64,000 bases of DNA from contig OZ244829.1 of the NCBI GenBank assembly GCA_965220415.1, positions 145,327 through 209,326 on the forward strand, in the 5' to 3' direction. This DNA comes from Candidatus Poribacteria bacterium. Its GTDB lineage: Bacteria > Poribacteria > WGA-4E > JAJDTR01. A program made the position numbers and the translations under genes. Shown here piece after piece: positions 9,749 through 45,837 of the stretch (position 1 is the first letter of the stretch; every line of letters begins with the position of its first letter). The notes beneath the pieces were generated by a model. That model was not told the DNA's origin and searched no databases. It was given only the letters and a program-made list of their open reading frames with translations.

Positions 9749-10783
9749 ATGGCAGCAATTTTTCGAGTTGAAGCAGATAGACTCAGGAGTTTTAGCAGGC
9801 GTCTATGCGAAGCTGTCGGCACGCCGCGTGATATTGCGGAAGTTGAAGCGGAAATGCTTGTCAATGCCGACCTGAGAGGCCACACATCGCACGGGGTTTA
9901 CCAATTTCCAAACTACTTCAGGGCTGTGGAAGACAACTTCCTCATTCCCGACGCCGTTCCCGAGATTGTAAACGAAACACCATCTGCCGCGCTCGTGGAT
10001 GCGCATAGCGGCTGGGGGCACTATTCCGCGCAGTGGGCAATGCAACTCGCAATGGACAAGGCAGAGGAAACGGGAGTTGGTGCGATAAGTCTGGCGAGCG
10101 CGAACCATATTGGCAGGTTAGGCGAATATTGCGAACAAGCCGCTGCCGCCGGATTCATAAGTTTCGTAACTTTCGGCGTCAGTGGGCGGGAAGATGGCAT
10201 TGCGACGCCGTTTGGCGGTACCGAGGCGGTTCTTAGCAGTAATCCCATCGCTTTCGGCGTGCCTGCCGCGGATGGCAGACACCTCATCGCGGATTTCGCG
10301 ACCACAATGTTCGCCAATGCCAAGATAAACATCTATCGGATTAAGGGGCAGGAACTTCCACCGGGTTGTATTGTGGACAAAGACGGAAGGCCGAGCACTG
10401 ATCCGAATGATTTCAATACCGGCGGCATGAGTTTGGTTTTCGGCGGTTACAAGGGATACGCGTTTTCTCTATTGACGTGCCTACTGGCTGGACTAAACGG
10501 TGGTTTCGAGCCGAACAAATGCGAGTTGGCGGGCAGTTTCTTTATTGCCATAAAGGTAGGGGCATTTATGCCCTCCGATGCATATGGTCAAACTGCCGCG
10601 AGTTTTCTTGATTTCATGCGCGGTGTCGCGCCCGCGCCGGGATTTTCCGAGGTGCTTGTGGCTGGCGACATGGAGCGCCGTAAGACGGAAGAACAGTTAG
10701 CTGAAGGAATAGAGCTTCCGGAAGAGGTGATGAACAATCTCCGAGCCTATGGCGCGAAATATGGTATTAGCGAGAACCTGTGA
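9749..10783 (+). CDS. Ldh_2 family (malate/L-lactate/ureidoglycolate/sulfolactate-type) dehydrogenase; start revised from 9587 to 9749
   Basis: ADLRGHTSHG, NHIGRLG, SNPIAFG, DFATT and GGYKGY motifs. The upstream extension in the ORF track runs through the repeat array. Confidence 0.9.
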   Translation: MAAIFRVEADRLRSFSRRLCEAVGTPRDIAEVEAEMLVNADLRGHTSHGVYQFPNYFRAVEDNFLIPDAVPEIVNETPSAALVDAHSGWGHYSAQWAMQLAMDKAEETGVGAISLASANHIGRLGEYCEQAAAAGFISFVTFGVSGREDGIATPFGGTEAVLSSNPIAFGVPAADGRHLIADFATTMFANAKINIYRIKGQELPPGCIVDKDGRPSTDPNDFNTGGMSLVFGGYKGYAFSLLTCLLAGLNGGFEPNKCELAGSFFIAIKVGAFMPSDAYGQTAASFLDFMRGVAPAPGFSEVLVAGDMERRKTEEQLAEGIELPEEVMNNLRAYGAKYGISENL

Positions 10784-10818
10784 ACAGAGTATTTCGATTC
10801 GTATCAAGGAGATAAATC

Positions 10819-11019
10819 ATGCAAACCGCACAGGAAATTCAGGTGGCTGTTTCTCAACTGTCGGCGGATGAATTAGCCCGTTTTAGGGAATGGTTCAGCA
10901 GATTTGATGCCGAAATATGGGACAGACAATTTGAAGAAGATGTGAAATCCGGGAAGTTAAATCGGCATGGTGAGAAGGCGATTGCAGATTTTTGGGGCGC
11001 GAAATGTAAGCAATTGTAA
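10819..11019 (+). CDS. Small antitoxin-like protein (EI..AV.QL..ELA.FR.WF..FD...WD.Q.E.D family)
   Basis: SD AGGAG; the pattern matches a family usually found upstream of a RelE/ParE-like toxin. Confidence 0.65.
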   Translation: MQTAQEIQVAVSQLSADELARFREWFSRFDAEIWDRQFEEDVKSGKLNRHGEKAIADFWGAKCKQL

Positions 11020-11051
11020 ATCACGACTGTAATCCGCGAGGTGTCTGACAA

Positions 11052-11384
11052 ATGAAGGACGAACCCAAAAAGCCTATACTCGATAACTTCCTTTCTCAGC
11101 ATGAGAGTGTCCGCATAGGCCAAATGTTTGGCTATCCCGCATATTATGTAGGTCGGTCCATGTTTGCTTGTTTATACGAGGGAAAGGTGGGATTGAAGGT
11201 CCCAGAGGAAACGGCAAACAAGGCTAGGACGAGGGACGGAATATCGGATTTTCAGCCATACGGAAAACCGAAAATGCGGGAATGGATTCAGTTTGATTTT
11301 GATTCGGAGGAGGAACTGAATCGGTACAGTGACCTAATAGACACCGCAATAGGGTATGTGGAAACGAGGAAAAGGGAGAAGTGA
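11052..11384 (+). CDS. TfoX/Sxy N-terminal domain family protein
   Basis: MFGYPAYYV..MFA and FQPYGKPKMREW motifs. Confidence 0.75.
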   Translation: MKDEPKKPILDNFLSQHESVRIGQMFGYPAYYVGRSMFACLYEGKVGLKVPEETANKARTRDGISDFQPYGKPKMREWIQFDFDSEEELNRYSDLIDTAIGYVETRKREK

Positions 11385-11445
11385 GGGACTTCTTATGAGG
11401 AAATTTTGCTTGGCTGTTGTGGCATCGGGTGCCTGGATGAATCTT

Positions 11446-13630: not shown

Positions 13631-15133
13631 CTATTCCGCTCTAATTTGTTGCGGTCTTATTCTTCGAGGCTTCCTGCGTTGTGATCTTTCTTGATTTTCT
13701 CGCTCCGGAATCATTCTCGGCTGGCGGTTCAAGCGTTTCAGCAAACGTTCGACTTCCTCCTCGTAGGTTTGAAATGGGTCCTCCATTTCAAACGGTTCCT
13801 CGTGAGTAAAATAGATTTGATGCCAATCAACAATGCACGGCATATTATTTTGAAAAAGGTAGCGCATGACAGCGGAGCGTGCTTTCGCGCGTGTGGTATC
13901 CGGGGCATTACGAATCGCGGCGTCAGTTTTCTCCGGTGTTACAAGCTGTACCATTTGCCCTTGGTTTTCCAATTCGTAATAAAGACTCCGGTCCGGATGA
14001 AGATGGTGATATTCCAAGTCGAGGCTTTCGAGCCAGGGATCGTTCCAACTTAGCCCTTCGTCTTCCATAAAAGTCTCTAGCAGCCATTTCTTTGCCGCCC
14101 AATCAACGCGATCGCGCACACTTCGCCAATCTTGTTCAAGGTCGTTTAATACAGATTCCCAACTTGCCAACACCCAATCCGTGTCATCGTCTTGTCCCTT
14201 CAAAATCTTTTGTGCAAGTTCAAGATATTTTCGCTGGAGATCAATCGCCGAGATTGTTTCACCGGTCTCAAGTTCGACAATCCACCGCAGGCTTTGATCT
14301 CGCGAGATGTCTTTCAAGGCACCCACCGGATCCGCTAAAGCAATATTACTCGGTTGGTGTCCTCTTTCAATAAGGTCAAGCACCAGCGACGTGGTTCCAA
14401 CCTTCAGCGCTGTAGCGTATTCGGACATGTTTGTGTCCCCAACGAGCAGATGGAGACGTCGATATTTCGTGTAGTCCGATAGTGGCTCATCACGTGTGTT
14501 AATGATTGCCCTACTAAACTGGATCCATTCATAGATTTCGGTGACGATATGATCCGCGCGCTGCGATATTTGAAAACCGTGAAAAGCATCAGAGCCAGGT
14601 TGAACATCCTCGAAATCAAGAATTTCCTCATATCCTCCAACCCTGCCCGCTCCCGCATATATTTGCCTAGTGACGAAAAACGGCATCAGTGCCGGAATGA
14701 CAACCTTGTAGAATGGGATGTCACGCCGGAGTTGGTAGTTTTCATGACATCCGAAAGTTGCCCCCGTGAAATGGTCGATGTTATTTTTGAAGAACGAAAC
14801 TGCCTCATTTAGCCCCAACTCACCCGTGACATGCGTTATCAAGCGCTCAATTGCTTTGTCGTAGGCGACGACCGACAAAAGATCGACGCACTCGGGGGTA
14901 GCATACTCAAGGTGCCCCATGTCTATATAAAGTCGACCCCCATTGAAGAGAAAGCCGCCGTTACCCGGTGGTTCGCCGTAGTCACGATAGTGTATGTCAG
15001 AAATACCCAGTTGTAGCTGGTGGAAGACGTGGTCTCTGACCACTGAGGCGACTCCTTCGGATGACATACTCAGTTGATTCGCTTCGATCATACATCCGAA
15101 TTCTGTTTCAATTCCAAAAATGCGCTTGCTCAA
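13631..15133 (-). CDS. pafA: Pup/UBact-protein ligase (PafA family)
   Basis: RIFGIETEFG, NGGRLYID.GHLEYATPEC, NTRDEP and RRLHLLVGD motifs; last gene of the proteasome operon. Confidence 0.9.
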   Translation of the reverse strand: MSKRIFGIETEFGCMIEANQLSMSSEGVASVVRDHVFHQLQLGISDIHYRDYGEPPGNGGFLFNGGRLYIDMGHLEYATPECVDLLSVVAYDKAIERLITHVTGELGLNEAVSFFKNNIDHFTGATFGCHENYQLRRDIPFYKVVIPALMPFFVTRQIYAGAGRVGGYEEILDFEDVQPGSDAFHGFQISQRADHIVTEIYEWIQFSRAIINTRDEPLSDYTKYRRLHLLVGDTNMSEYATALKVGTTSLVLDLIERGHQPSNIALADPVGALKDISRDQSLRWIVELETGETISAIDLQRKYLELAQKILKGQDDDTDWVLASWESVLNDLEQDWRSVRDRVDWAAKKWLLETFMEDEGLSWNDPWLESLDLEYHHLHPDRSLYYELENQGQMVQLVTPEKTDAAIRNAPDTTRAKARSAVMRYLFQNNMPCIVDWHQIYFTHEEPFEMEDPFQTYEEEVERLLKRLNRQPRMIPERENQERSQRRKPRRIRPQQIRAE

Positions 15134-15175
15134 AATCTTCCTCGGATGTTTCGGTGTTAGTCATTAAGAATCGTC

Positions 15176-15955
15176 TCACAACCAATTGGCAGTTAGGTTT
15201 TCAATTTCCTCCGACTGGAGTATGCGGAATTTGCTGTTGCCTCGGCGCGTGCTATCCAAAACTGCGGCTTCAATCTGCCCCTCTTTCAACTCTTCCTTCA
15301 AGACATCGTGCACCTGCACCCTGTCTACGGGTGGCTCTTCAGATTCATCCGATTCTTCATCCTCCTGTAAACTTAGATCTCGTCCTACCGCCCAAATTTC
15401 CAAAGCGGTGCGTGCGGTAGAGATGAGTGTTCCGTCGCTCGAATTAGAATCAGCCAAATATCGGCGCATCGCATTCTCAATGGCATCGGTACCTCCGATC
15501 AATTGAGCATGGCTATCGGTCGCGACGGCGCCATCGTAGTTTATGGAACTAAACTGATTTTCCCTACCGAGTGTCCCCAATTCAGCCAATAGCATCTTGA
15601 TGATGGGAGCGGCTCCAAAAATGGTCTCAAATGTCTGTTTTATCGCGGGGCCAAGAACAAAGTTTGCTAGTCGGTGTAGGGTTACATCGTCCACCGAGTT
15701 TTGAAATCCTTGTACGGAGGCAGTATCCGTCGCCAACATACGCAACTGCTCTATGTAAGCGGGGTGTCCGATTGCGCACAGTGCGGTTCGGTTGTGTACT
15801 TCAAAGATTTTACGCTGACCACTTCCGACCGTCAGAAGCAACAACCCATCGTTATAGTTTAACCCAACGACGGGACTTCCCGGGCGAAGCTGGTCCTCGA
15901 TGTAATCCCTACGATCATTAATCGCCTCAATCCAGCGATATGGTTCATCTAACAT
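15176..15955 (-). CDS. prcA: 20S proteasome alpha subunit
   Basis: GSPVVGL and RKIFEVHNR motifs; located between prcB and pafA. Confidence 0.88.
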   Translation of the reverse strand: MLDEPYRWIEAINDRRDYIEDQLRPGSPVVGLNYNDGLLLLTVGSGQRKIFEVHNRTALCAIGHPAYIEQLRMLATDTASVQGFQNSVDDVTLHRLANFVLGPAIKQTFETIFGAAPIIKMLLAELGTLGRENQFSSINYDGAVATDSHAQLIGGTDAIENAMRRYLADSNSSDGTLISTARTALEIWAVGRDLSLQEDEESDESEEPPVDRVQVHDVLKEELKEGQIEAAVLDSTRRGNSKFRILQSEEIENLTANWL

Positions 15956-16781
15956 AGTCTACGTCAACAAATTCGGTATAGATTTCGCCTAGCTGTCCCT
16001 CGGACAGGTCGTGAATACCCTCCCGTGTGATTGTCTTGGCTGTCGGGAAGATGTGCGATTTTGGGTTATATCCACTGGTTGCGACATCGTATTCAGATGC
16101 TGTGTCAAGCAGTCTCAGCACCGTGCGAGTCGCCTGCTGTTCGTCCATTTCGGCGAGTGGTCCGCCTTCCCAGCGATCCAAGTAGCGCAGGATGCCTCGA
16201 ATCCAGACCGATCCGGAGCCAGACACGGCAAAAGCAGCGTTTTCAAAGTGTGCGCCGAGGGCGTCATAGAAATAAATTTTTCCGCCGTTTTCATCTTCTT
16301 GCTGATTCAGGTCGTAGAGTGCGAAGATAGGAATCACTCCGCCAATCCCCTGTAATGCCATTGGCAAGTTTTCGCGAATCAAGCGTGAGAGCATCCTCAA
16401 CTTTCCTTCTACGCTTAACTCTTGAAGTTGACTTCGACGGAAATACTGAAATGAATGTTCAAGGACTCTCGCCATTTCATAGGCAATAGCCGGGGATCCC
16501 GAGATAGCCAGGACGGAATATTCATCTATTGGCAATACTTTTTCCGCTCGGTCGTACATGACGGATGTTCCAGCCGTTGCTCGCCGATCTCCGGCAATCA
16601 GAATACCCTCCCGATAACGCACCGCAATAACAGTTGTGCCCTCTGCTACCTCCAAATGATGCCCAACAACGCTTCCGGCTGATCCAGCAGGCATGTTTTG
16701 GGGAGTCAAGTCGTCAGCACCGAGTTGGATGTGGCAGTTCCGTGATTTCAAGAGACTGAGGAAGTCCCCTTTGTGGTTCAT
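15945..16781 (-). CDS. prcB: 20S proteasome beta subunit with propeptide
   Basis: EG|TTVIAV (catalytic N-terminal Thr), AGDRRATAG and GSGS motifs. Confidence 0.93.
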   Translation of the reverse strand: MNHKGDFLSLLKSRNCHIQLGADDLTPQNMPAGSAGSVVGHHLEVAEGTTVIAVRYREGILIAGDRRATAGTSVMYDRAEKVLPIDEYSVLAISGSPAIAYEMARVLEHSFQYFRRSQLQELSVEGKLRMLSRLIRENLPMALQGIGGVIPIFALYDLNQQEDENGGKIYFYDALGAHFENAAFAVSGSGSVWIRGILRYLDRWEGGPLAEMDEQQATRTVLRLLDTASEYDVATSGYNPKSHIFPTAKTITREGIHDLSEGQLGEIYTEFVDVDYVR

Positions 16782-16784
16782 TAC

Positions 16785-16982
16785 CTATTCCCCTGTCCTC
16801 TGGCGATAGTTGCGTGACTGGTTTTTCTTGACACGACGCATGCGGTTGAGTAATTCCTTCCTGTCCGGACTATTCGTGTCCGGGCGTTTTGGCCCCTCAT
16901 CATCGCCGCCATCGCCTGGTCCAAAAGGCTTCGCGGGTCGCTGTTGTCGGTCTCTCAGGTGCATAAGCACATCTGTTGTCAT
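16785..16982 (-). CDS. ubact: Ubiquitin-like modifier UBact (Pup counterpart)
   Basis: 65 aa, Pro/Gly-rich N-terminal half, ending ELLNRMRRV..NQSRNYRQRTGE-stop; stop codon 3 nt before the prcB start. Confidence 0.9.
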   Translation of the reverse strand: MTTDVLMHLRDRQQRPAKPFGPGDGGDDEGPKRPDTNSPDRKELLNRMRRVKKNQSRNYRQRTGE

Positions 16983-17083
16983 GATAATTGCCTCCTGTCA
17001 ATAAAGACAAAACTGCGTTTTTAGTTCTGTGACATCTAGAAACCACCGGGCAACTAGAGTTGGGATACGGGGGGTTCGATTTT

Positions 17084-17439
17084 TCGTAACTGTTTAGTGC
17101 ATCGTTTGGTTCGTAGTATTACAGTTCGTCGCACGTCCGCTCTGGGCATGTAATACCATTTCTATAAAATGGAAGTGCATTGATTACGTGGATTAAGCAA
17201 AGAAACTTGCCGGAGCGGAACAACAAGCTTCGTCTCTGCGCAAAGTCCGCGGGGCAAGATGCCCCGCCTACGGAAAAAGTGGACGATACCATTCAAACAT
17301 CATATGCACTATTATTCAAGCGAAATGGTATAAGCCCCCAATTAGCCGGAATTAGCATTGTACTTCCATACCCGGTGCGTTCCCTGCCCCCGGTCGGTCT
17401 GGATCGGCAAATCCAGACCGATGGACTAAACAATTACGA
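17084..17439. mobile_element. 356-bp MITE family D, between dop and ubact
   Basis: Terminal inverted repeats TCGTAACTGTTTAGTGCATCG / CGATGGACTAAACAATTACGA; internal REP GCGGGGCAAGATGCCCCGCCTAC; shorter copy at 52763-53136. Confidence 0.8.
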
Positions 17440-17493
17440 TTTTCGCTTCCGGAGTATCACGCTGCCATTTGCATCACGAGAGGATTAGGCGCG

Positions 17494-19011
17494 CTAATTC
17501 CGAATACCTAAATTGTCTACCAAGGATTCTACCGTTGATGAATTATTCAGGATGCGGTTGTATTCCGCTGCCAGACTTGGATCCGCAAGTTGTTTCATGC
17601 AAACGGAAACGGGTCTTCCCTTTACATTGAACGTGATGGTATCCCACTGAACAGATCTAACATCGGCACTAAATTTATTGAGCGACTGTCCACGAAAATA
17701 CGCCCGGGTATCCGACGGGGGATGGTGAATGGCGTGTTCAATCTGCCGCTCGGTGACGACACGGCGCATCAAGCCCTGTGATTGGAGTCCGTAATATAAC
17801 CCTTTGTCCTGATTGATATTGTGATATTCCAAATCCAGACTTTGTAACCACGGATCGTCCCAACTAATCCCCTCTTCGTCAATGAATGTCTCTAGCAACC
17901 ATTTCTTTGCAACCCAATCCAAGCTATCTGTCAAACTCATCGGATCTCTTTCGAGACGATTGAGCACCAACTCCCATTCATTCAACACCCAGTCGGTATC
18001 GGAATCTTGACCTGCAAAATGCCGCCGGGCTAAATCCAAGTATTTTCGTTGCAAATCAACTGCGGAGATTGTAGCGCCGTTGCTCAACCTTAATGTCCAT
18101 TCGTAAGTTTGATCCCGCGAAATCTCCTTGATTGTCTCAATCGGGTTATCAATGGCAAAGCTACCAGGCACCCGCCGTTGTTCGATCAGACTAATCACCA
18201 ACGCGGTTGTACCGAGTTTGAGTGCGGTCGAATACTCCGACATGTTGGCATCACCCACAATACCGTGAAGTCGGCGATACTTAGCGGCATCCGCATGCGG
18301 TTCGTCGCGTGTGTTCACAATCGGGCGGTTGTGCATCGTATCTACGCTAATTTCTACATGAAAGAAATCTGATCGTTGCGCCAGTTGGAAGAATCCGGCG
18401 GAACTAATGCCCGACTCGGTTTCGATGCCGACTTTGCCCGCCCCGGCAAAAATCTGCCGCGTCACAAAGAACGGCATGATACTTTCTTTCAGGTAATCGA
18501 ACTCAATCTCCCGCTTCATCAGATAGTTGTCGTGGCAGCCGTAACTGTGTCCATGAAAATCGGTATTGTTTTTATAGAGCAACACCTCGCGCTTCAGTTT
18601 TTCGCTACGACGCACAGCGCATTGAAACAAGATCCGCTCGCCAGCTTTATCGTGTGCTATTAACTCAAACAAACTTTGACATTCAGGCGTGGAATATTCC
18701 GGATGAGCGTGATCGTTGTATAGACGAGCGCCGTTCACAAGAATCATATCGCTCTTGATTTCGTTGAAGGGAAGGTTGCGTCGACTATCCTGTTCTTGAT
18801 ACTGGCGCTCATCCGGGTGTTCTTGTAACTCACTAGCGCGGAATCCACGATCGTCGCGAAACGGATCCTCTCCGTTATAATCCCACATCGGACGAAAGTC
18901 GCCCGGTCGATAACTCTTGATGAGTTCAATTGATAATTGAACCGGATCAACATTTTTCTTGCCTTCAAGCGTAATGCCGTATTCCGTTTCAATTCCAAAC
19001 AGTCTTTGCAT
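17494..19011 (-). CDS. dop: Depupylase/deamidase Dop family
   Basis: RLFGIETEYG, NGARLYNDHAHPEYSTPEC, RDEPHAD and RRLHGIVGDAN motifs. Confidence 0.9.
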   Translation of the reverse strand: MQRLFGIETEYGITLEGKKNVDPVQLSIELIKSYRPGDFRPMWDYNGEDPFRDDRGFRASELQEHPDERQYQEQDSRRNLPFNEIKSDMILVNGARLYNDHAHPEYSTPECQSLFELIAHDKAGERILFQCAVRRSEKLKREVLLYKNNTDFHGHSYGCHDNYLMKREIEFDYLKESIMPFFVTRQIFAGAGKVGIETESGISSAGFFQLAQRSDFFHVEISVDTMHNRPIVNTRDEPHADAAKYRRLHGIVGDANMSEYSTALKLGTTALVISLIEQRRVPGSFAIDNPIETIKEISRDQTYEWTLRLSNGATISAVDLQRKYLDLARRHFAGQDSDTDWVLNEWELVLNRLERDPMSLTDSLDWVAKKWLLETFIDEEGISWDDPWLQSLDLEYHNINQDKGLYYGLQSQGLMRRVVTERQIEHAIHHPPSDTRAYFRGQSLNKFSADVRSVQWDTITFNVKGRPVSVCMKQLADPSLAAEYNRILNNSSTVESLVDNLGIRN

Positions 19012-19287
19012 ATTTGATTGTACTAGACGGGATTATGTGTTGCCGGTCTATCTTGCGTACTTACCGTGCCGGGGAAAACTCTCATGTCCTGCTCAATCCC
19101 TCGTGCCTAATAATGATTGGACGAATTGATTCGTGTTTACGGTCTGAGGGGTACCTCACAGGCTTTGCGGCATAACCTACCCAAGGCACAATTGGGAGAA
19201 ATGTAGCCCTCTAACGATACGTATTACATGGTGAAGGTTGGTGGGTTGAAATACGTATACTGAGTGTACGATGCGTCGCGCATTGGG

Positions 19288-21072
19288 CTAAATCACATGC
19301 CCGGCAGCCTTTCTCGAATGCGATTTTTCCGGTCGGATTGGAGAAACTTTGACAACGTTTTCCGCGTCGTAGTCGAGCAACTTTAGCCAGTCCTCAACAC
19401 TGTCCGTTGAAGGGAAAATATCGCTTTCGCTATACTCCGCGCCAAGCGCATCCATCAAATCCAGCGCCCCGATACCTGTTTCTTGGTTCAGATTATTGAT
19501 TGCACGTTTAATTGCTGATTCCTTTGCGCGCTGTACAATGGATTCGATGATAGCACCACTGCATAAATTACCGCGATAGAGGATATCCCGCCGTCCATTT
19601 CGCAACCCAACTTCCAAAAACTTATTCTCTTCAGTTGGCTGAAACATTTCGTCGGAGACTCGATCTATCAAATTATTGACAGCCGCTTCGAGATTACCGT
19701 CATGAGTTTTAACAATTTCGGGATCAATAGGGAGTTCCGGCGTCAAGTAGATGCGGAAAATGTCGTTTGCAGCCTCCCTATCGGGGCGCGTCACTTTGAT
19801 TTTTCGATCGATGCGACCGGGGCGCAGGATGGCCGGATCAATAAGGTCGGGTCGGTTAGTTGCGAGAATGATGACAACATCTTGAAGTGACTCAATACCA
19901 TCCATCTCAGCGCAAAACATCGGCACAACGGTGTTCGCTATGTTGTGAGATCTATAAGATCGACGCGTTCCCAAGATTGACTCGGCTTCGTCAATAAACA
20001 CGAATGACAGATAACCATCCTTGCGTTTTTCTCGAGCAATCTGAAAGATTTCACGAACCTTCCGTTCGGATTCTCCCAACCACATATTCAAGATTTCGGG
20101 ACCCTTAATGTGGAGGAAACAGCCTTCAACATCGCTTGCGGTTTCCGTTTTTAACCTTTGCGTCAGGTTATGTGCTGTAGCTTTGCCGATTAGTGTTTTG
20201 CCACAGCCCGGGGGACCGTGTAGGAGGAAGCCCTTGGGTGCGCTATATTGAAAACTCTCAAATATCTCCGGATGCAGAATCGGGAGTTCAATGGTATCTT
20301 TAATAAGGTTTATGGTGTCGTTTAATCCACCAACCTTCTCCCAAGGTATCTCGGGAACTTCCTCCAAGTAGTAGTCTTTTACCTCTTGAGTCTCCAATCG
20401 TTCGAGCGCAACTTTGAAGTTTGGGTCGATACGGACTTCGTCGCCCACTTTCAATTTTTTGTTGGCAAGATCTGTAGATCGTTCCAAAATCACGGCCTGT
20501 GTCGCAGGCTCCTGTCCAACGCGCAATCTACCATCCGGCAAGATGTCGCCAATTTTCCCTATGGGGCCGGCATCGCTATATCCCAGTTCGCCCACTATGA
20601 CATAAGCCTCGTTGAGGAGAACGCTGAAGCCGATTTTGAAGGAGTATGGATCCAACCGGGAGTCAATGTTCGCGAGGTACTCCGAACCACCGACAATTAC
20701 TCGCGCAATGCCTTTCTTAGGGAATCCCAAGAGTGTGCCTATTCGGTTCGCAGGAGCGGTTAGTTTGTCAACTGTTTCCTGCATGTCGACAATCGCTTGC
20801 CGCGCTTCCTGAAACGTGACTTCGTCTTCAATAATGGCACGTCGCAGTTCGTACAGAAGTGAACGTCGGCGATCGTTCTCGTGCATTGTGTAAAGAAGTT
20901 GATCCACGAGCATCAAAGAACGCGGTGTACCTACATCTTCTTCAATTTCATCGGATTCTTCAGCAAAATCGTCATCATATACATCAAGGCCCTCACCAGA
21001 TCGCCTTTCAGATTGAGTCCGATTTTTGTTGTCGCGCATCAAACTTCTCCTGACACAATGTAAATTGAGCAA
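19288..21072 (-). CDS. arc: Proteasome-associated AAA+ ATPase (ARC/Mpa); likely start 21039
   Basis: N-terminal coiled coil and OB region; Walker A GPPGCGKT, Walker B FIDEAES, SRH NRPDLIDPAILRPGRIDRK. Confidence 0.92.
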   Translation of the reverse strand: MLNLHCVRRSLMRDNKNRTQSERRSGEGLDVYDDDFAEESDEIEEDVGTPRSLMLVDQLLYTMHENDRRRSLLYELRRAIIEDEVTFQEARQAIVDMQETVDKLTAPANRIGTLLGFPKKGIARVIVGGSEYLANIDSRLDPYSFKIGFSVLLNEAYVIVGELGYSDAGPIGKIGDILPDGRLRVGQEPATQAVILERSTDLANKKLKVGDEVRIDPNFKVALERLETQEVKDYYLEEVPEIPWEKVGGLNDTINLIKDTIELPILHPEIFESFQYSAPKGFLLHGPPGCGKTLIGKATAHNLTQRLKTETASDVEGCFLHIKGPEILNMWLGESERKVREIFQIAREKRKDGYLSFVFIDEAESILGTRRSYRSHNIANTVVPMFCAEMDGIESLQDVVIILATNRPDLIDPAILRPGRIDRKIKVTRPDREAANDIFRIYLTPELPIDPEIVKTHDGNLEAAVNNLIDRVSDEMFQPTEENKFLEVGLRNGRRDILYRGNLCSGAIIESIVQRAKESAIKRAINNLNQETGIGALDLMDALGAEYSESDIFPSTDSVEDWLKLLDYDAENVVKVSPIRPEKSHSRKAAGHVI

Positions 21073-41062: not shown

Positions 41063-44000
41063 TTGAACAGCTTGTTTCAATCTTCAGCTCATGAAAGGAA
41101 AAATATGGATTCACGTTTCAAGCGATTGGTTGTTCTCATCGCCATACTTGCGGTGATTGGTGGGGTTATCACTATCCTTGTGAGGATCTACCCGGACCTA
41201 CTATGGTTTGGTGTTGTCGGCTACGGCTCCGTATACAAGAAGATTTTGCTTACAAAAGTGTTCTTAGGGATTGGTGTTGGCAGTTTCTTTCTTGTTGTTA
41301 CTTTGCTTAACGTCTATCTGTTGTATCGTTTCACTCCTAGTCGGCTTAGCCCGACGGTTATGGAGAGCATCCCGATAAGAGGAGAGGCTGATTTTGACCT
41401 GCGTCGACTAATCTATGGTGTACTAACACTCTTGGCGATAGGGTTTAGCGCGTTGATGGGTTATGCGGCGACGGACCGGTGGGAGCCTTTTTTACGGTAT
41501 TCAAATGCCGAAGGGCTCGCGTTTCAGAATGCTACACCTCTCTTAGAGCCAGCAAGCCGTGATGCAACCGAGTTTTACATTTCTGAGCAAGAACTAATGG
41601 CTAAAGGCATGAAAGTCGAGGACTCGGTTGTGATCCAAGACGCGGGCGGAAGGATGAGTGCAACCATCCAATCCGTTCAGGTTCAAGGCGACGGTGTCGC
41701 AAGAATCCAATTGGATAAACCCTTGGGATTTGATGTGACGACGAATGCGGCACTGATGGCGGCGGCACGCGATCCGATTTTTCAGCAGGATGTCAGCTAT
41801 TATGTCTTCAAGATGCCGATCGAACGCTTCATCATTGGCAATCTGTTTGGACTGTTCATGTTGTTGACCTTCTTTTCTGTCGCCATTTACTTCTTTCACG
41901 GTTTACTCATTGGTGATAACAATCGTCTTTCCCCGCCGCCCCGCGTGAAAAATCATCTCTTGACACTTGGTGCGTTGACTCTGATATTCCGCGGCTGGAA
42001 CTATCGTTTTGCAATGTATGATTTACTTTACACAACGAATGATGTTGTCCGCGGCGGCGGTGGCTACGCCGCAATACACGCTCGTCTACCCTTATTGAAA
42101 ATCCTCTTGGTACTCTCGCTCATTTGCGCCGCGGCTTTCCTCGTTAGCATTTTTCTAAAGCGACTCAGATATGCCCTCGGAGCATTTGGAATCTTTCTGA
42201 TTGTTGGTCTGTTTGGGCAAGTCTATCCGGCCGTTGTGCAGAAATGGCGTGTAGAACCGAACAAACAGGAACTTGAGACAGAATACATAAACTACAATAT
42301 CAAGGCAACGCTACATAGCTACGATCTGGAAGAGAACACGGTTACGGAAGAGGAATATCCCTTGACTGGTGAACTCTCGTACGATGGCGTTAGAAACGAG
42401 GAAAATGCAGCAGTAATGAACAGCATTCGACTATGGGATGAACGCCCCATTCAGCGGACTTTCCGACAATTGCAGGAGTTACGATCGCAGTACGATTTTC
42501 ATGGTGTAGACATCGATCGGTACGTAGTGGACGGTTCGCCGCGTCAAGTGATGTTATCCGTACGAGAATTAAATATAAACGAACTTCCGCACGCCGTTCG
42601 GAACGATTGGTTTAAGCGCACCTATGTTTATACCCATGGGTACGGGGCTGTGATGAGTCCCGTTAACGAGATTCTTGATGGAAAACCGAAAATGTACGTT
42701 CGGGATATCGATCCGGTTGATTATGAACCCGAGTGGGATTTTCGATTCGGCGAAAACCCGGGACCTCGAATCTACTACGGAGAACGCACAAATCATTATG
42801 TCATCGTGCATCCGGAGCGTACGGAGGAACTGGAATTTGATTACCCGACATCATTTGGTGAAGATTTTGCCAAATACGCGTATCAAGGAAAGGGAGGTGT
42901 TAAACTCTCCACCTTCTGGCGCAGGTTTGTGTACATGCTGAGGTTTGGTAATGAGTTCAAGTTCGTTCTTCCGGGTGCAATCGAGTCTAGCAGTCGAGTG
43001 CTCTATCATCGCAACATCAAGGAACGCGTCAACAAGGTAGCTCCCTTCCTCCGATACGATGGGGATCCATACGCAATTATTCATGACGGCAGGTTGGTGT
43101 GGATGCTTGACGCTTATACGACCACACATCGATATCCGTATGCCGCGCCGATGCAACATGCGCTGCGCGCCGAAATTGCCGCACAACGCGGCAGACGGGT
43201 TGCCGGTCGAATTCAGGGCGGCGAGAAACCGTGGGGGAATTACATTCGCAATGCGGTAAAAGTTGTAGTCGATGCTTATGACGGAAGCATAGATTTTTAT
43301 GTCATTGAGCGGGAAAAAGATCCGATTGTCGAGTGCTATCGCAGTATTTTTCCCGATTTATTCAAGCCCTTTGACACGATGCCTGAAGCACTCAAAAAGC
43401 ATATCCGCTACCCGACCACAATGTTTCTCATTCAGGCGCGGATGTATCAGGATTATCACATGACAGATCCGGTTACATTCTATGCAAGCGAAGATCAGTG
43501 GGAAATTGGGAAGGAACTTTATGACAATACTGAACGTCAGCGCTCCCAACAGGCAACGCCGGTGCCAACATCTCCGTTTGCGCAGCGTCAGGCGAGCCTG
43601 CCTGAAACTGTCACAAACGTCCAAGAGGTCGCGCCCTATTATGTAATCATTAAAATGCCGGGAGAGGAACGGGCCGAATTTATGCTCATGTTGCCGTTTA
43701 CACCCAAGAACAAGCCAAACCTTACCGCTTGGTTTGCCGCCCGATGCGACCTTCCACAGTATGGCCAATTGCTAGTTTATCGGTTTCCGAAGGGGAAGCT
43801 CGCACCCGGACCGATGCAGATGGAAAACTTTATCAGCCAAGAGCCTGAAATCTCCCAGCAGATTTCGTTGTGGGATAGTCAGGGTTCGCGTGTGCTAAGA
43901 GGTAATCTGTTGATTATTCCGATGAATGAATCCATCTTATATGTAGAGCCCATCTATATTCAGTCGGAGGATGCAAAAACTGCAATTCCCGAATTGCGGC

Positions 44001-44320
44001 GGGTGGTCATCGGATATAAAGAGAACGTAGCGTGGGGCAAAAGCCTTGATGAAGCGCTGATTAACATGTTCGGAAAGAGTGTTGCGTCCGCTACGGGCGG
44101 TCTCGCCAGAGTTGAGGTCGGTTCCAACATCATACGTGCAGACGCGCCAACGGCCGATAAAACCTCCGTTCGTGATTTGGCGAGCTTGGCGACTCAACAC
44201 TTTCAATCAGCGCAGAAGGCTCAACGCGGCGGAAATTGGTCGGACTACGGCAGACATCTTAATCTATTGGAACAAACTTTGAAGCAATTGGAAGCCAATA
44301 CACGGAAAGGAGGTGAATAG
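41063..44320 (+). CDS. UPF0182 family membrane protein; likely start 41105
   Basis: DPIF..D.SYY.F, IRLWD, YTHGYG, PRIYYGE, DGDPY, NYIRNAVK and LRGNLL motifs. Confidence 0.93.
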   Translation: MNSLFQSSAHERKNMDSRFKRLVVLIAILAVIGGVITILVRIYPDLLWFGVVGYGSVYKKILLTKVFLGIGVGSFFLVVTLLNVYLLYRFTPSRLSPTVMESIPIRGEADFDLRRLIYGVLTLLAIGFSALMGYAATDRWEPFLRYSNAEGLAFQNATPLLEPASRDATEFYISEQELMAKGMKVEDSVVIQDAGGRMSATIQSVQVQGDGVARIQLDKPLGFDVTTNAALMAAARDPIFQQDVSYYVFKMPIERFIIGNLFGLFMLLTFFSVAIYFFHGLLIGDNNRLSPPPRVKNHLLTLGALTLIFRGWNYRFAMYDLLYTTNDVVRGGGGYAAIHARLPLLKILLVLSLICAAAFLVSIFLKRLRYALGAFGIFLIVGLFGQVYPAVVQKWRVEPNKQELETEYINYNIKATLHSYDLEENTVTEEEYPLTGELSYDGVRNEENAAVMNSIRLWDERPIQRTFRQLQELRSQYDFHGVDIDRYVVDGSPRQVMLSVRELNINELPHAVRNDWFKRTYVYTHGYGAVMSPVNEILDGKPKMYVRDIDPVDYEPEWDFRFGENPGPRIYYGERTNHYVIVHPERTEELEFDYPTSFGEDFAKYAYQGKGGVKLSTFWRRFVYMLRFGNEFKFVLPGAIESSSRVLYHRNIKERVNKVAPFLRYDGDPYAIIHDGRLVWMLDAYTTTHRYPYAAPMQHALRAEIAAQRGRRVAGRIQGGEKPWGNYIRNAVKVVVDAYDGSIDFYVIEREKDPIVECYRSIFPDLFKPFDTMPEALKKHIRYPTTMFLIQARMYQDYHMTDPVTFYASEDQWEIGKELYDNTERQRSQQATPVPTSPFAQRQASLPETVTNVQEVAPYYVIIKMPGEERAEFMLMLPFTPKNKPNLTAWFAARCDLPQYGQLLVYRFPKGKLAPGPMQMENFISQEPEISQQISLWDSQGSRVLRGNLLIIPMNESILYVEPIYIQSEDAKTAIPELRRVVIGYKENVAWGKSLDEALINMFGKSVASATGGLARVEVGSNIIRADAPTADKTSVRDLASLATQHFQSAQKAQRGGNWSDYGRHLNLLEQTLKQLEANTRKGGE

Positions 44321-44321
44321 A

Positions 44322-44603
44322 ATGGGATTGGATTGGAAACCGCGCCATCGGGATACGCTTATCGGGGACATTCCTTGGTTGGCACGAATTACCGATAAGG
44401 CTAACGCAAAGTTGGCAGGCACAATCGGCGATTACATCTACCCGTGACCGCAAGACAAAAAGTTCCTGGAGGAACATAAGGTCAGTGCTGAAGAATTCGT
44501 TGCAATGGTGAAAAAAAATCCTTCGGACGATGAGATGATTGCAGCGATGAAGTCGCTCAACAAGCCATCGAAGAAGCGCAAGTCAAAGAGCCGTAAATCC
44601 TGA
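44322..44603 (+). CDS. Probable selenoprotein, DUF5069-like, 93 aa, with an in-frame TGA (Sec42) at 44445-44447; absent from the ORF track
   Basis: SD AGGAGGTG. Translation MGLDWKPRHRDTLIGDIPWLARITDKANAKLAGTIGDYIYP-U-PQDKKFLEEHKVSAEEFVAMVKKNPSDDEMIAAMKSLNKPSKKRKSKSRKS. The TGA sits at the Cys of the family's YIYPCP.D motif. Confidence 0.82.
44454..44483 (+). promoter_or_regulatory. Bacterial SECIS-like hairpin
   Basis: GAC-AAAAA-GTTCC-[TGGA]-GGAAC-ATAAG-GTC. The apical loop begins 20 nt after the UGA and has G at loop position 2. Confidence 0.7.
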
Positions 44604-44691
44604 TGGGACAGTCGTAATGCGTGAAAGTTCACAATGGGGGTTCAAAGAAGAAGATTAAGTCGTTTATCATTCACTCGACTAATCCATTTTC

Positions 44692-45837
44692 GTGTTTTGT
44701 CTCTCGTACTTCACGCATTACGTCTCTCCTATTCTATGGGAGATTCTATCATTGGAATTAGAAGATCTTCGAGATCAGTTGGACGAGATTGACAATCGGA
44801 TATTGCTACTGCTGCACAGCCGTGCCGAGGTGGTAAGGGAAGTTGGGCAAATCAAAGCGAAAGCGGGCGTAGAAAACGTCTATGCTCCTCAGCGAGAGAC
44901 AGAGATCCTTGCTCGGTTGCGGGCAAAGAATAGCAACTTATTTCCTGCAGATGCATTGGACACAATCTTTTCCGAGATAATTTCCGCATGTCGATCTTTG
45001 GAGAAACGTTTACGTGTAGCTTTTCTAGGTCCCGCGGGGAGTTTCGGTCATGAGGCAGCACTTCGACATTTTGGTTCGTCGGTTGAATTCACTCCAATAA
45101 TGGATCAGATCGATGTATTTGCGGAGGTTGAATCGGGCGGAGCGGATTACGGCGTCGTTGCCATAGAGAACTCATCAAGGGGGACTGTCCGCGACGTTCT
45201 AGAGATGTTTGAAGTTACGACGTTGCAAATCTGCGCAGAGGTTTTTTTGCCGATTGACCAGAATCTACTTTCAAGTGTCCCAAGGGAGAAAATCATTAAA
45301 GTTTATTCGCATCCACAGTCGTTTGCCCAATGCCGAGAGTGGTTGCGCCAAAATCTGAGGGGTATGCGGCAGTTTGAAGTCGCAAGCACATCGGAAGCCG
45401 CACACTTAGCGGCGGAAGAGGAGGGGACTGCGGCTATAGCCAGCAAACTCGCGGCTGAAATCTACGGATTACAGATTGTCGATGAGTCTATCATGGACAG
45501 TTCGAATAATATAACCCGCTTCCTAGTGATTGGACGTCATATTGCGAAGAGAAGCGGCCGAGATCGGACATCAATTTTTATTGCCATCCAAGACAAAGTT
45601 GGCGCTCTTTACGAAGTTCTCACGGTTCTACAGCAACACCAAATCAACATGAGCAAGATCGAATCAATGCCAGCCCAGACGAAGCCGTGGGAGTACGTGT
45701 TTTACGTTGATTTGGATGGACATATCGAAGACGCTAACGTGCAGGCAGCGCTGCCAGAGCTTGAGGAGTTATGCATGCATGTCAAGATGCTAGGTTCCTA
45801 TGTCCGAGGGGCATCGCCGCAGGAAAAATCAGTCTAG
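44692..45837 (+). CDS. pheA: Chorismate mutase/prephenate dehydratase; likely TTG start 44752
   Basis: LRDQLDEID..LL, FLGP.GSF.H.AA, SHPQSFAQC, NITRF, IESMP and MLGSY motifs. Confidence 0.95.
   Translation: MFCLSYFTHYVSPILWEILSLELEDLRDQLDEIDNRILLLLHSRAEVVREVGQIKAKAGVENVYAPQRETEILARLRAKNSNLFPADALDTIFSEIISACRSLEKRLRVAFLGPAGSFGHEAALRHFGSSVEFTPIMDQIDVFAEVESGGADYGVVAIENSSRGTVRDVLEMFEVTTLQICAEVFLPIDQNLLSSVPREKIIKVYSHPQSFAQCREWLRQNLRGMRQFEVASTSEAAHLAAEEEGTAAIASKLAAEIYGLQIVDESIMDSSNNITRFLVIGRHIAKRSGRDRTSIFIAIQDKVGALYEVLTVLQQHQINMSKIESMPAQTKPWEYVFYVDLDGHIEDANVQAALPELEELCMHVKMLGSYVRGASPQEKSV

Follow-up and report, generated by a model that had tools for sequence, protein, structure and literature searches.

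Does the reading frame at 44322–44603 of the window, by which we mean the whole 64,000-nucleotide stretch of Candidatus Poribacteria DNA analysed here, end at the TGA that forms its codon 42, or does it run through that codon as a selenoprotein gene? GenBank annotation takes the first course, entering the poribacterial gene as a hypothetical protein of 41 amino acids, with MCY3739441.1 among the entries, on at least 180 contigs. An earlier note, made from the letters of this DNA alone, proposed the second, with an in-frame UGA at the conserved Cys of a DUF5069-like protein and a SECIS-like hairpin behind it. The comparative evidence shows that the UGA is recoded and that the part downstream of it is coding. 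In our judgement the frame is very probably a selenoprotein gene with selenocysteine (Sec) at UGA-42, and we infer that Sec, and not some other amino acid, is what is inserted there.

Everything that the earlier note had read directly from this frame proved correct when we read it again: the Shine-Dalgarno sequence, the ATG, the TGA at codon 42, the 51 further codons and the hairpin (Table 1). The UPF0182 gene upstream closes with a TAG at 44318–44320, and the ATG of the small gene follows at 44322. Codon 42 stands in the context GDYIYP-TGA-PQD, from which 51 sense codons lead to a Lys-rich end, KPSKKRKSKSRKS. With U replaced by C, the read-through product matches the Pfam family DUF5069 (PF16798) from residue 7 to residue 86, across the TGA, at E=9e-15 and 55.4 bits against a cut-off of 27 bits, and the family assignment in the note is thus upheld. 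The N-terminal 41 amino acids alone reach 22.9 bits, which is under that cut-off. Because the window protein covers only positions 4–83 of the 133 in the profile, we regard the poribacterial protein as a short form of DUF5069 that lacks the C-terminal third; its orthologues have products of 80–93 residues. The Lys/Arg/Ser-rich C-terminal tail (window 44563–44600) occurs only in the subclade of the window (loci L001–L008, L024 and L143), and most poribacterial orthologues stop about 12 residues before the end of the window protein.

Table 1. Features of the putative selenoprotein locus and its immediate context, in window coordinates.
Feature	Position	Strand	Basis or remark
Shine-Dalgarno sequence AGGAGGTG	44308–44315	+	6 nt ahead of ATG, within the 3' end of the UPF0182 gene; read from sequence
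Putative selenoprotein gene, 93 codons + stop	44322–44603	+	Translation; short-form DUF5069, predicted Sec at residue 42, Lys-rich tail
In-frame UGA, codon 42, inferred selenocysteine codon	44445–44447	+	Motif Y-I-Y-P-U-P-x-D
SECIS-like hairpin core	44462–44475	+	Stem GUUCC 44462–44466, loop UGGA 44467–44470, stem GGAAC 44471–44475
True stop codon of the putative selenoprotein gene, itself TGA	44601–44603	+	Sequence, translation
UPF0182 membrane protein gene, syntenic upstream neighbour (context)	41063–44320	+	Pfam PF03699, 812 bits
pheA, syntenic downstream neighbour (context)	44692–45837	+	Pfam CM_2, PDT, ACT (chorismate mutase, prephenate dehydratase and ACT domains)

To place the frame among its relatives, we scanned one genome per species and found 260 relatives, of which the best 80 were analysed. 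All of these best 80 are metagenome-assembled (MAGs) or single-cell genomes of Candidatus Poribacteria; the protein of one of them, L001, is 97% identical to that of the window. The gene is also carried by the complete poribacterial chromosome OZ246960.1, where its product is 96% identical. Codon 42 is TGA in each of the 81 poribacterial sequences (the 80 species loci plus the window), and in each of them 39–55 codons remain open after it. The start, M[GAS]LDWKPR, is conserved across the 80 species. Mean column identity at codon positions 1, 2 and 3 is 0.925, 0.959 and 0.686 upstream of the TGA and 0.922, 0.947 and 0.708 downstream of it. This equal pattern on the two sides indicates that both halves evolve as coding sequence. 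Neither of two findings that would speak against the earlier note, a downstream part free of coding constraint and a TGA peculiar to one assembly, was obtained. Among poribacterial species the small protein is 68–97% identical, mostly 76–83%, whereas in most loci UPF0182 and PheA, encoded on either side, show only about 55–60% identity. Its greater conservation in every poribacterial species examined suggests that sponge symbionts rely on it for an important function that depends on selenium.

A reassigned genetic code does not account for the in-frame TGA. This codon is the stop of 9 of the 27 long open reading frames in the window and of the putative selenoprotein gene itself, and its use as an ordinary stop in this genome excludes reassignment. 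A search of the window for other frames split by a same-frame TGA returned none that was convincing.

The coding sequence that follows the UGA carries a second signal. The hairpin starts 14 nt after the UGA and its loop opens at the 20th nucleotide after it; one more A-U pair could form on the outside, at 44460/44477. Codons 48–51, for F-L-E-E, are TTC, CTG, GAG and GAA in 81, 81, 81 and 80 of the 81 sequences (323/324 in total), and the lone exception has GAG for GAA, with U.G where the others pair U-A. Elsewhere in the gene these amino acids are coded far less uniformly, the share of the commonest codon being only 0.40–0.75. The amino acid at codon 47 varies (M, K, L, V, R, S), yet the G that opens the stem is always kept. 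Comparison across species thereby shows the hairpin in codons 48–51 to be under selection at the RNA level. Because the hairpin is invariant inside Poribacteria, RNAalifold finds no covariation there, and no conserved lower stem or bulge was seen. Synonymous fixation is also found at other degenerate codons of the gene (window 44331–44339 and 44487–44489), namely D4 as GAT (81/81), K6 as AAA (81/81) and A56 as GCT (79/80); a search for a pairing partner or overlapping feature for these three codons gave none.

More divergent TGA forms, gathered through database look-ups and one metagenome pattern scan (82 stretches, 46 of them real), supply the variation that is missing within the phylum. TGA forms make up three clades whose gene surroundings are unrelated, and the register of the hairpin is common to all of them. 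The stem is GUUCC/GGAAC in clade A (the Poribacteria-type), CGCUUCC/GGGAGCG in clade B and AGUUCC/GGAACU in clade C, and the loop is UGGA in 130 of 131 TGA forms. Across an alignment of 58 sequences, 89.9% of cells are paired, compared with 81.6% in shuffles (0/500) and 28–67% when the register is shifted; for covariation the score is 0.188, compared with 0.069 in shuffles (0/500). Two alignment pairs change in a compensatory manner, 24–37 (G-C 53, C-G 4) and 23–38 (U-A 32, A-U 8, G-C 4, G-U 3), and the outermost pair tested is weak. The hairpin first proposed from a single sequence is thus corroborated by its loop, by fixed synonymous sites and by two covarying pairs. In one TGA form, L112, the stem is shifted by one position and the loop is CUUGA; to read this form as two compensatory pairs in the same register is wrong.

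Forms with Cys in place of the UGA provide a contrast that is strong but not perfect. In the Cys orthologue P0013, F-L-E-E is encoded as TTT CTT GAA GAA and there is no hairpin (local MFE 0.0), nor was one found in the Cys forms P0017 and P0020. A further Cys form, P0011, keeps the stem with a loop of UUGA, and in the distant Cys forms P0019 and P0021 the same register shows weak pairing, rich in G.U. An imperfect contrast of this kind matches what a 2026 hydrogenase study found in other Sec/Cys families (PMC13582414). The change from CTG to CTT in P0011 is not taken as the loss of an essential loop G, as the TGA form L112 has the same CTT with its shifted stem.

Folding energy contributes nothing to the case. 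The hairpin by itself has an unremarkable folding energy (z=0.2), so its support comes from the comparison across species. A bona fide SECIS region, that of the selD gene in locus L069, scores no better (z=-0.07), which indicates that folding energy is uninformative for the hairpin. Searches of Rfam at gathering and permissive thresholds gave no relevant match.

If Sec occupies the place of a conserved Cys, TGA and TGY codons should alternate at this position, as the earlier note anticipated. They do so: TGA stands in all 81 poribacterial sequences, and TGT or TGC in six distinct Cys homologues (P0011, P0013, P0017 and P0019–P0021). A protein search returned 23 relatives, 7 with Cys at the codon-42 position, 15 with 'W' and 1 ending exactly at ...YIYP. 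The DNA behind the database 'W' is TGA, translated by the gene caller under genetic code 4. An exhaustive profile search extended the family to 485 clusters at E<=1e-3. In 168 family domain hits the position is held by Cys in 109 and by Ser in 25, and 11 representative clusters terminate exactly after ...Y[IV]YP. The Ser forms constitute a Y-G-S-G subfamily that includes proteins with 2–6 tandem repeats, and the presence of Y-G-S-G in place of Y-P-C-P indicates that part of the DUF5069 family works without Cys or Sec. Tandem proteins of this sort (P0025, P0037, P0038, P0040 and P0168) carry 2–6 DUF5069 copies in up to 1158 amino acids, mostly with Ser or another residue in Y-G-S-G.

Full-length entries with a false Trp are found in metagenome protein sets (P0001–P0010, P0012, P0014–P0016, P0018 and P0024), and they sometimes read past the true TGA stop. 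Entries of this type, produced by translation under code 4, may be a general route to hidden selenoproteins. Recognition of the gene corrects a systematic mis-annotation, comprising both the truncated 'hypothetical protein' on its many contigs and the false-Trp proteins of the databases.

The selenoprotein reading presupposes that the lineage can decode UGA as Sec, and here the expectation of the earlier note held in part. Locus L069, which is poribacterial, contains a selD gene (10402–11442, minus strand) that is convergent with the DUF5069 TGA gene and has its 3' end about 170 nt beyond it. It matches TIGR00476 over its full length with 367 bits (cut-off 125), and an in-frame TGA at 11392–11394 occupies the catalytic position (TVKCAG-U-ASKL, compared with GAGCGCK in E. 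coli). A known selenoprotein is thus encoded in a genome that also carries the DUF5069 TGA gene, and as a predicted Sec-type enzyme this SelD indicates that Poribacteria decode UGA as Sec. Independent support comes from the literature: the COGs of Candidatus Poribacteria WGA-3G listed by Slaby et al. 2017 (Table S4; PMC5649159) include SelA (2), SelB (1) and SelD (1), and Poribacteria are among the phyla with Sec-type group 4 hydrogenases (PMC13582414). WGA-3G corresponds to locus L059, in which both the TGA and the hairpin are present. The 64-kb window itself holds no sel genes or tRNAs. In 2.1 Mb of related DNA we found no tRNA-Sec and saw neither selA nor selB, and tblastn of related DNA with an approximate E. 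coli SelA query gave no match. The expectation therefore stands for selD, by L069, and for SelA, SelB and SelD through the published COGs, whereas selA, selB and tRNA-Sec were not seen in the DNA searched. L069 is the one full-length locus without pheA in the usual place, and the adjacency of selD, seen in only 1 of 80 loci, may be incidental.

Taken together, we favour a model in which UGA-42 would be decoded as selenocysteine by the standard bacterial route, using tRNA-Sec and SelB, with recoding directed by a minimal SECIS hairpin (5–7 bp stem, UGGA loop) 14 nt past the UGA. The product would be a cytosolic DUF5069 protein of 80–93 residues and about 9–10 kDa, in which Sec would take the place of the conserved Cys in Y-x-Y-P-[C/U]-P-x-D, just before the N-terminus of helix 2. 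As a selenol protein it might then cycle with NAD(P)H-dependent flavoprotein reductases.

Several alternatives deserve consideration. The UGA could be recoded as something other than Sec, either as Cys by a SelB-dependent tRNA of the tRNA-ReC type or as Trp or Cys by near-cognate read-through. Arguing for this, tRNA-ReC-like tRNAs recode UGA with SECIS elements in some MAGs (PMC13582414), and sequence data do not identify the inserted residue. Counter to this, Sec-type selD and SelA/SelB COGs occur in Poribacteria. Insertion of Cys would leave TGA without advantage over TGY, yet TGA is kept in 81/81 species, and near-cognate read-through would not select a fixed SECIS-like hairpin; we consider this outcome improbable. 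A simpler possibility is that the UGA is a true stop, as public annotation has it (MCY3739441.1 and others), in which case only a 41-residue peptide would be made and the downstream frame would be untranslated or a separate gene. The 39–55 open codons in all species, with their coding-type substitution pattern, are difficult to reconcile with this, as is the way in which the downstream part aligns, both to the later half of DUF5069 and to Cys homologues that run on without a break, among them that of PDB entry 3OMD. A separate downstream gene would also have neither a start codon nor a Shine-Dalgarno sequence of its own at the junction, and we regard a true stop as very unlikely.

Just as unlikely, in our estimation, is a conserved hairpin that has nothing to do with the UGA and serves instead as a minus-strand terminator, a protein-binding site or a determinant of mRNA stability. 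A terminator scan does flag GTTCCTCCAGGAAC and a T-run on the minus strand; this is the same hairpin with a run of A that is not conserved (1–6 A in 8 nt across species), and no minus-strand gene ends there, so the terminator reading was rejected. Any role apart from recoding has also to explain why the spacing to the UGA is constant in three clades whose gene surroundings are unrelated, and why the hairpin is lost in the Cys forms P0013, P0017 and P0020. Pseudogene formation, an error of sequencing or assembly, or genome-wide reassignment of TGA has only the bare presence of an in-frame stop to recommend it. The same TGA recurs in 80 independent species-level assemblies and dozens of metagenome contigs, and the use of TGA to end 9 of the 27 long window frames, as well as the small gene, leaves reassignment effectively refuted; we assign these explanations a negligible probability. 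Decoding of UGA-42 as Sec remains the reading that we prefer.

How does this putative system compare with those already described? Like the canonical bacterial SECIS (E. coli fdhF type; the bSECISearch model), it has a stem-loop directly downstream of the UGA, and its small apical loop carries G within the first two positions. The apical loop of bacterial SECIS elements lies 16–37 nt from the UGA, and the DUF5069 hairpin fits with its loop at 20 nt. The same range from UGA to loop is given elsewhere (PMC13582414). In contrast to the canonical element, the DUF5069 hairpin is very short (5–7 bp with a 4-nt loop), lacks a conserved lower stem or bulge, is almost invariant in sequence across three clades and belongs to no Rfam family. 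A SECIS this small and this near to invariant would lend itself well to the question of how little SelB needs for recognition. SelD, with its UxxK motif, is a known selenoprotein of the same phylum; the protein is unrelated and its SECIS sequence is different. The thioredoxin-fold oxidoreductases of the UxxC/CxxU type are not matched, as the model of P0011 is a beta-hairpin with four helices and the poribacterial protein is without a paired Cys/Sec motif.

The closest parallels in kind of evidence are predicted single-Sec families such as DUF523, DUF1858, DUF3179 and DUF466/KCU-star (PMC13188914, Table 1), which likewise show a conserved UGA aligned to Cys, a SECIS-like hairpin, truncated annotation and no assigned function. 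Compared with these, DUF5069 is a different family with a helical rather than thioredoxin-like fold, and its motif, Y-P-U-P-x-D, has a single Sec and no partner Cys. The earlier note did not recall DUF5069 among known selenoprotein families, and this agrees with every catalogue that we checked. PF16798 is absent from the catalogue, dated May 2026, in which 119 families of prokaryotic selenoproteins are set out (PMC13188914, Table 1). NCBIfam/TIGRFAM models, which cover the NF and TIGR entries of that table, gave no match at E<=1. Among the papers searched none mentions DUF5069, the deep-Sep supplements mention neither DUF5069 nor PF16798 nor Poribacteria, and BSepDB was built from previously reported families. 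GOS_A, a 2008 GOS family omitted from the table of PMC13188914, is unrelated, and the DUF5069 motif is absent from the sequence files of the 2008 GOS paper. The comparison gives good support to DUF5069 as an uncatalogued bacterial selenoprotein family, with a decoding mechanism that would be standard.

What might the protein do? An AlphaFold2 model of the Cys orthologue P0011, which is 73% identical with the same numbering, has a pLDDT of 84.5 and comprises a beta-hairpin (residues 13–18) and four helices, of which helix 2 (43–51) follows directly on residue 42. A position just before the N-terminus of a helix is typical of reactive thiols and selenols. The model superimposes on 3omd_A with a TM score of 0.81 and an rmsd of 1.7 A (E=7e-4, 41% identity); no PDB entry other than 3OMD, an uncharacterised protein of Leptospirillum rubarum, is related by structure or by sequence. 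3OMD shares the family and fold and keeps Cys in YTYNCPLD. It differs in its length of 145 amino acids, with a C-terminal extension missing from the poribacterial protein, and in having Cys rather than Sec, and it has no assigned function. Residue 42 is likely the active site of the DUF5069 protein. Among its conserved residues are R8, R22, D25, K26, Y38, Y40 and D45. The exchange of Sec and Cys there pinpoints the probable catalytic residue of a family with a crystal structure, which makes DUF5069 experimentally approachable.

Some gene neighbours point in the same direction. In three lineages (L093/L142, L104/L139 and L086) the TGA-form gene is preceded on its own strand, at a distance of about 25 nt, by a gene for a fusion of glutaredoxin and thioredoxin reductase (Grx-TrxR), and a gene of the NAD_binding_1 (FNR-type) family, 297–301 amino acids, lies downstream in the Cys clade. 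The fusion protein (L093 3199–4425; L104; L086 18–371) has 409 amino acids with CSYC and CATC motifs. In other clades the neighbours are RsmD-like, PhyH/WelO5 or pheA genes, and the association with reductases is not universal. Sec at a helix N-terminus, together with Grx-TrxR or FNR-type neighbours in some clades, led us to propose a redox role, one that is weakly supported because a CxxU-type motif is lacking, as is a second Cys (apart from position 42, the poribacterial protein is free of Cys), and because neighbours differ between clades. Our proposal, for which we see the balance as even, is a protein that uses a single selenol for redox chemistry or chalcogen transfer and is recycled by NAD(P)H-dependent flavoproteins.

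A broader and more tentative proposal, which we would place slightly below that balance, is that DUF5069 represents an unrecognised single-Cys/Sec family of redox proteins or chalcogen carriers that use Grx-TrxR or FNR-type reductases, and that its Sec form, with an unusually small and near-invariant SECIS, is fixed across Poribacteria and also present in other marine lineages (probably Gemmatimonadota). If this is true, sponge symbionts would depend on selenium, through the Sec form, for a core function. Ocean metagenomes are the main source of clades B and C. Beside the gene in clade C stands a fused GlyRS with 89% identity to the representative of a protein cluster that has members labelled Gemmatimonadota; this neighbouring gene is suggestive of Gemmatimonadota as the source of the clade, and with it the Sec form would probably be present in at least two phyla.

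Gene order around the small gene is well kept in Poribacteria, with UPF0182 immediately upstream in 72 of 80 loci and pheA immediately downstream in 76 of 80. The earlier note had gone further and suggested co-expression with an envelope operon and pheA. Conserved order is consistent with this. Against it, gaps vary and a strongly structured spacer lies ahead of pheA: the start abuts the UPF0182 stop in the subclade of the window, whereas in most species the UPF0182 match ends 40–340 nt further upstream. Co-expression is thus only partly upheld.

The spacer before pheA (window 44603–44732) contains an inverted repeat with arms at 44603–44625 and 44710–44732, 23 nt long and 87% complementary, and its hairpin has a folding energy of -48.1 kcal/mol (z=-5.7, 0/200 shuffles as good). 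Loci L003, L004, L005 and L024 also have the core, CGTAATGCGTGA, in inverted-repeat form; it is absent in L001, L002, L006 and L008. The repeat is not dispersed and has no Rfam match. It may be a pheA leader or another regulatory structure.

Elsewhere in the window, a cluster on the minus strand (13631–21072) encodes a Pup-proteasome system, with two genes of the Pup-ligase family (PafA/Dop-like), a proteasome subunit and an AAA ATPase of the Mpa/ARC type. The Pup-proteasome system is best known in Actinobacteria and Nitrospirae.
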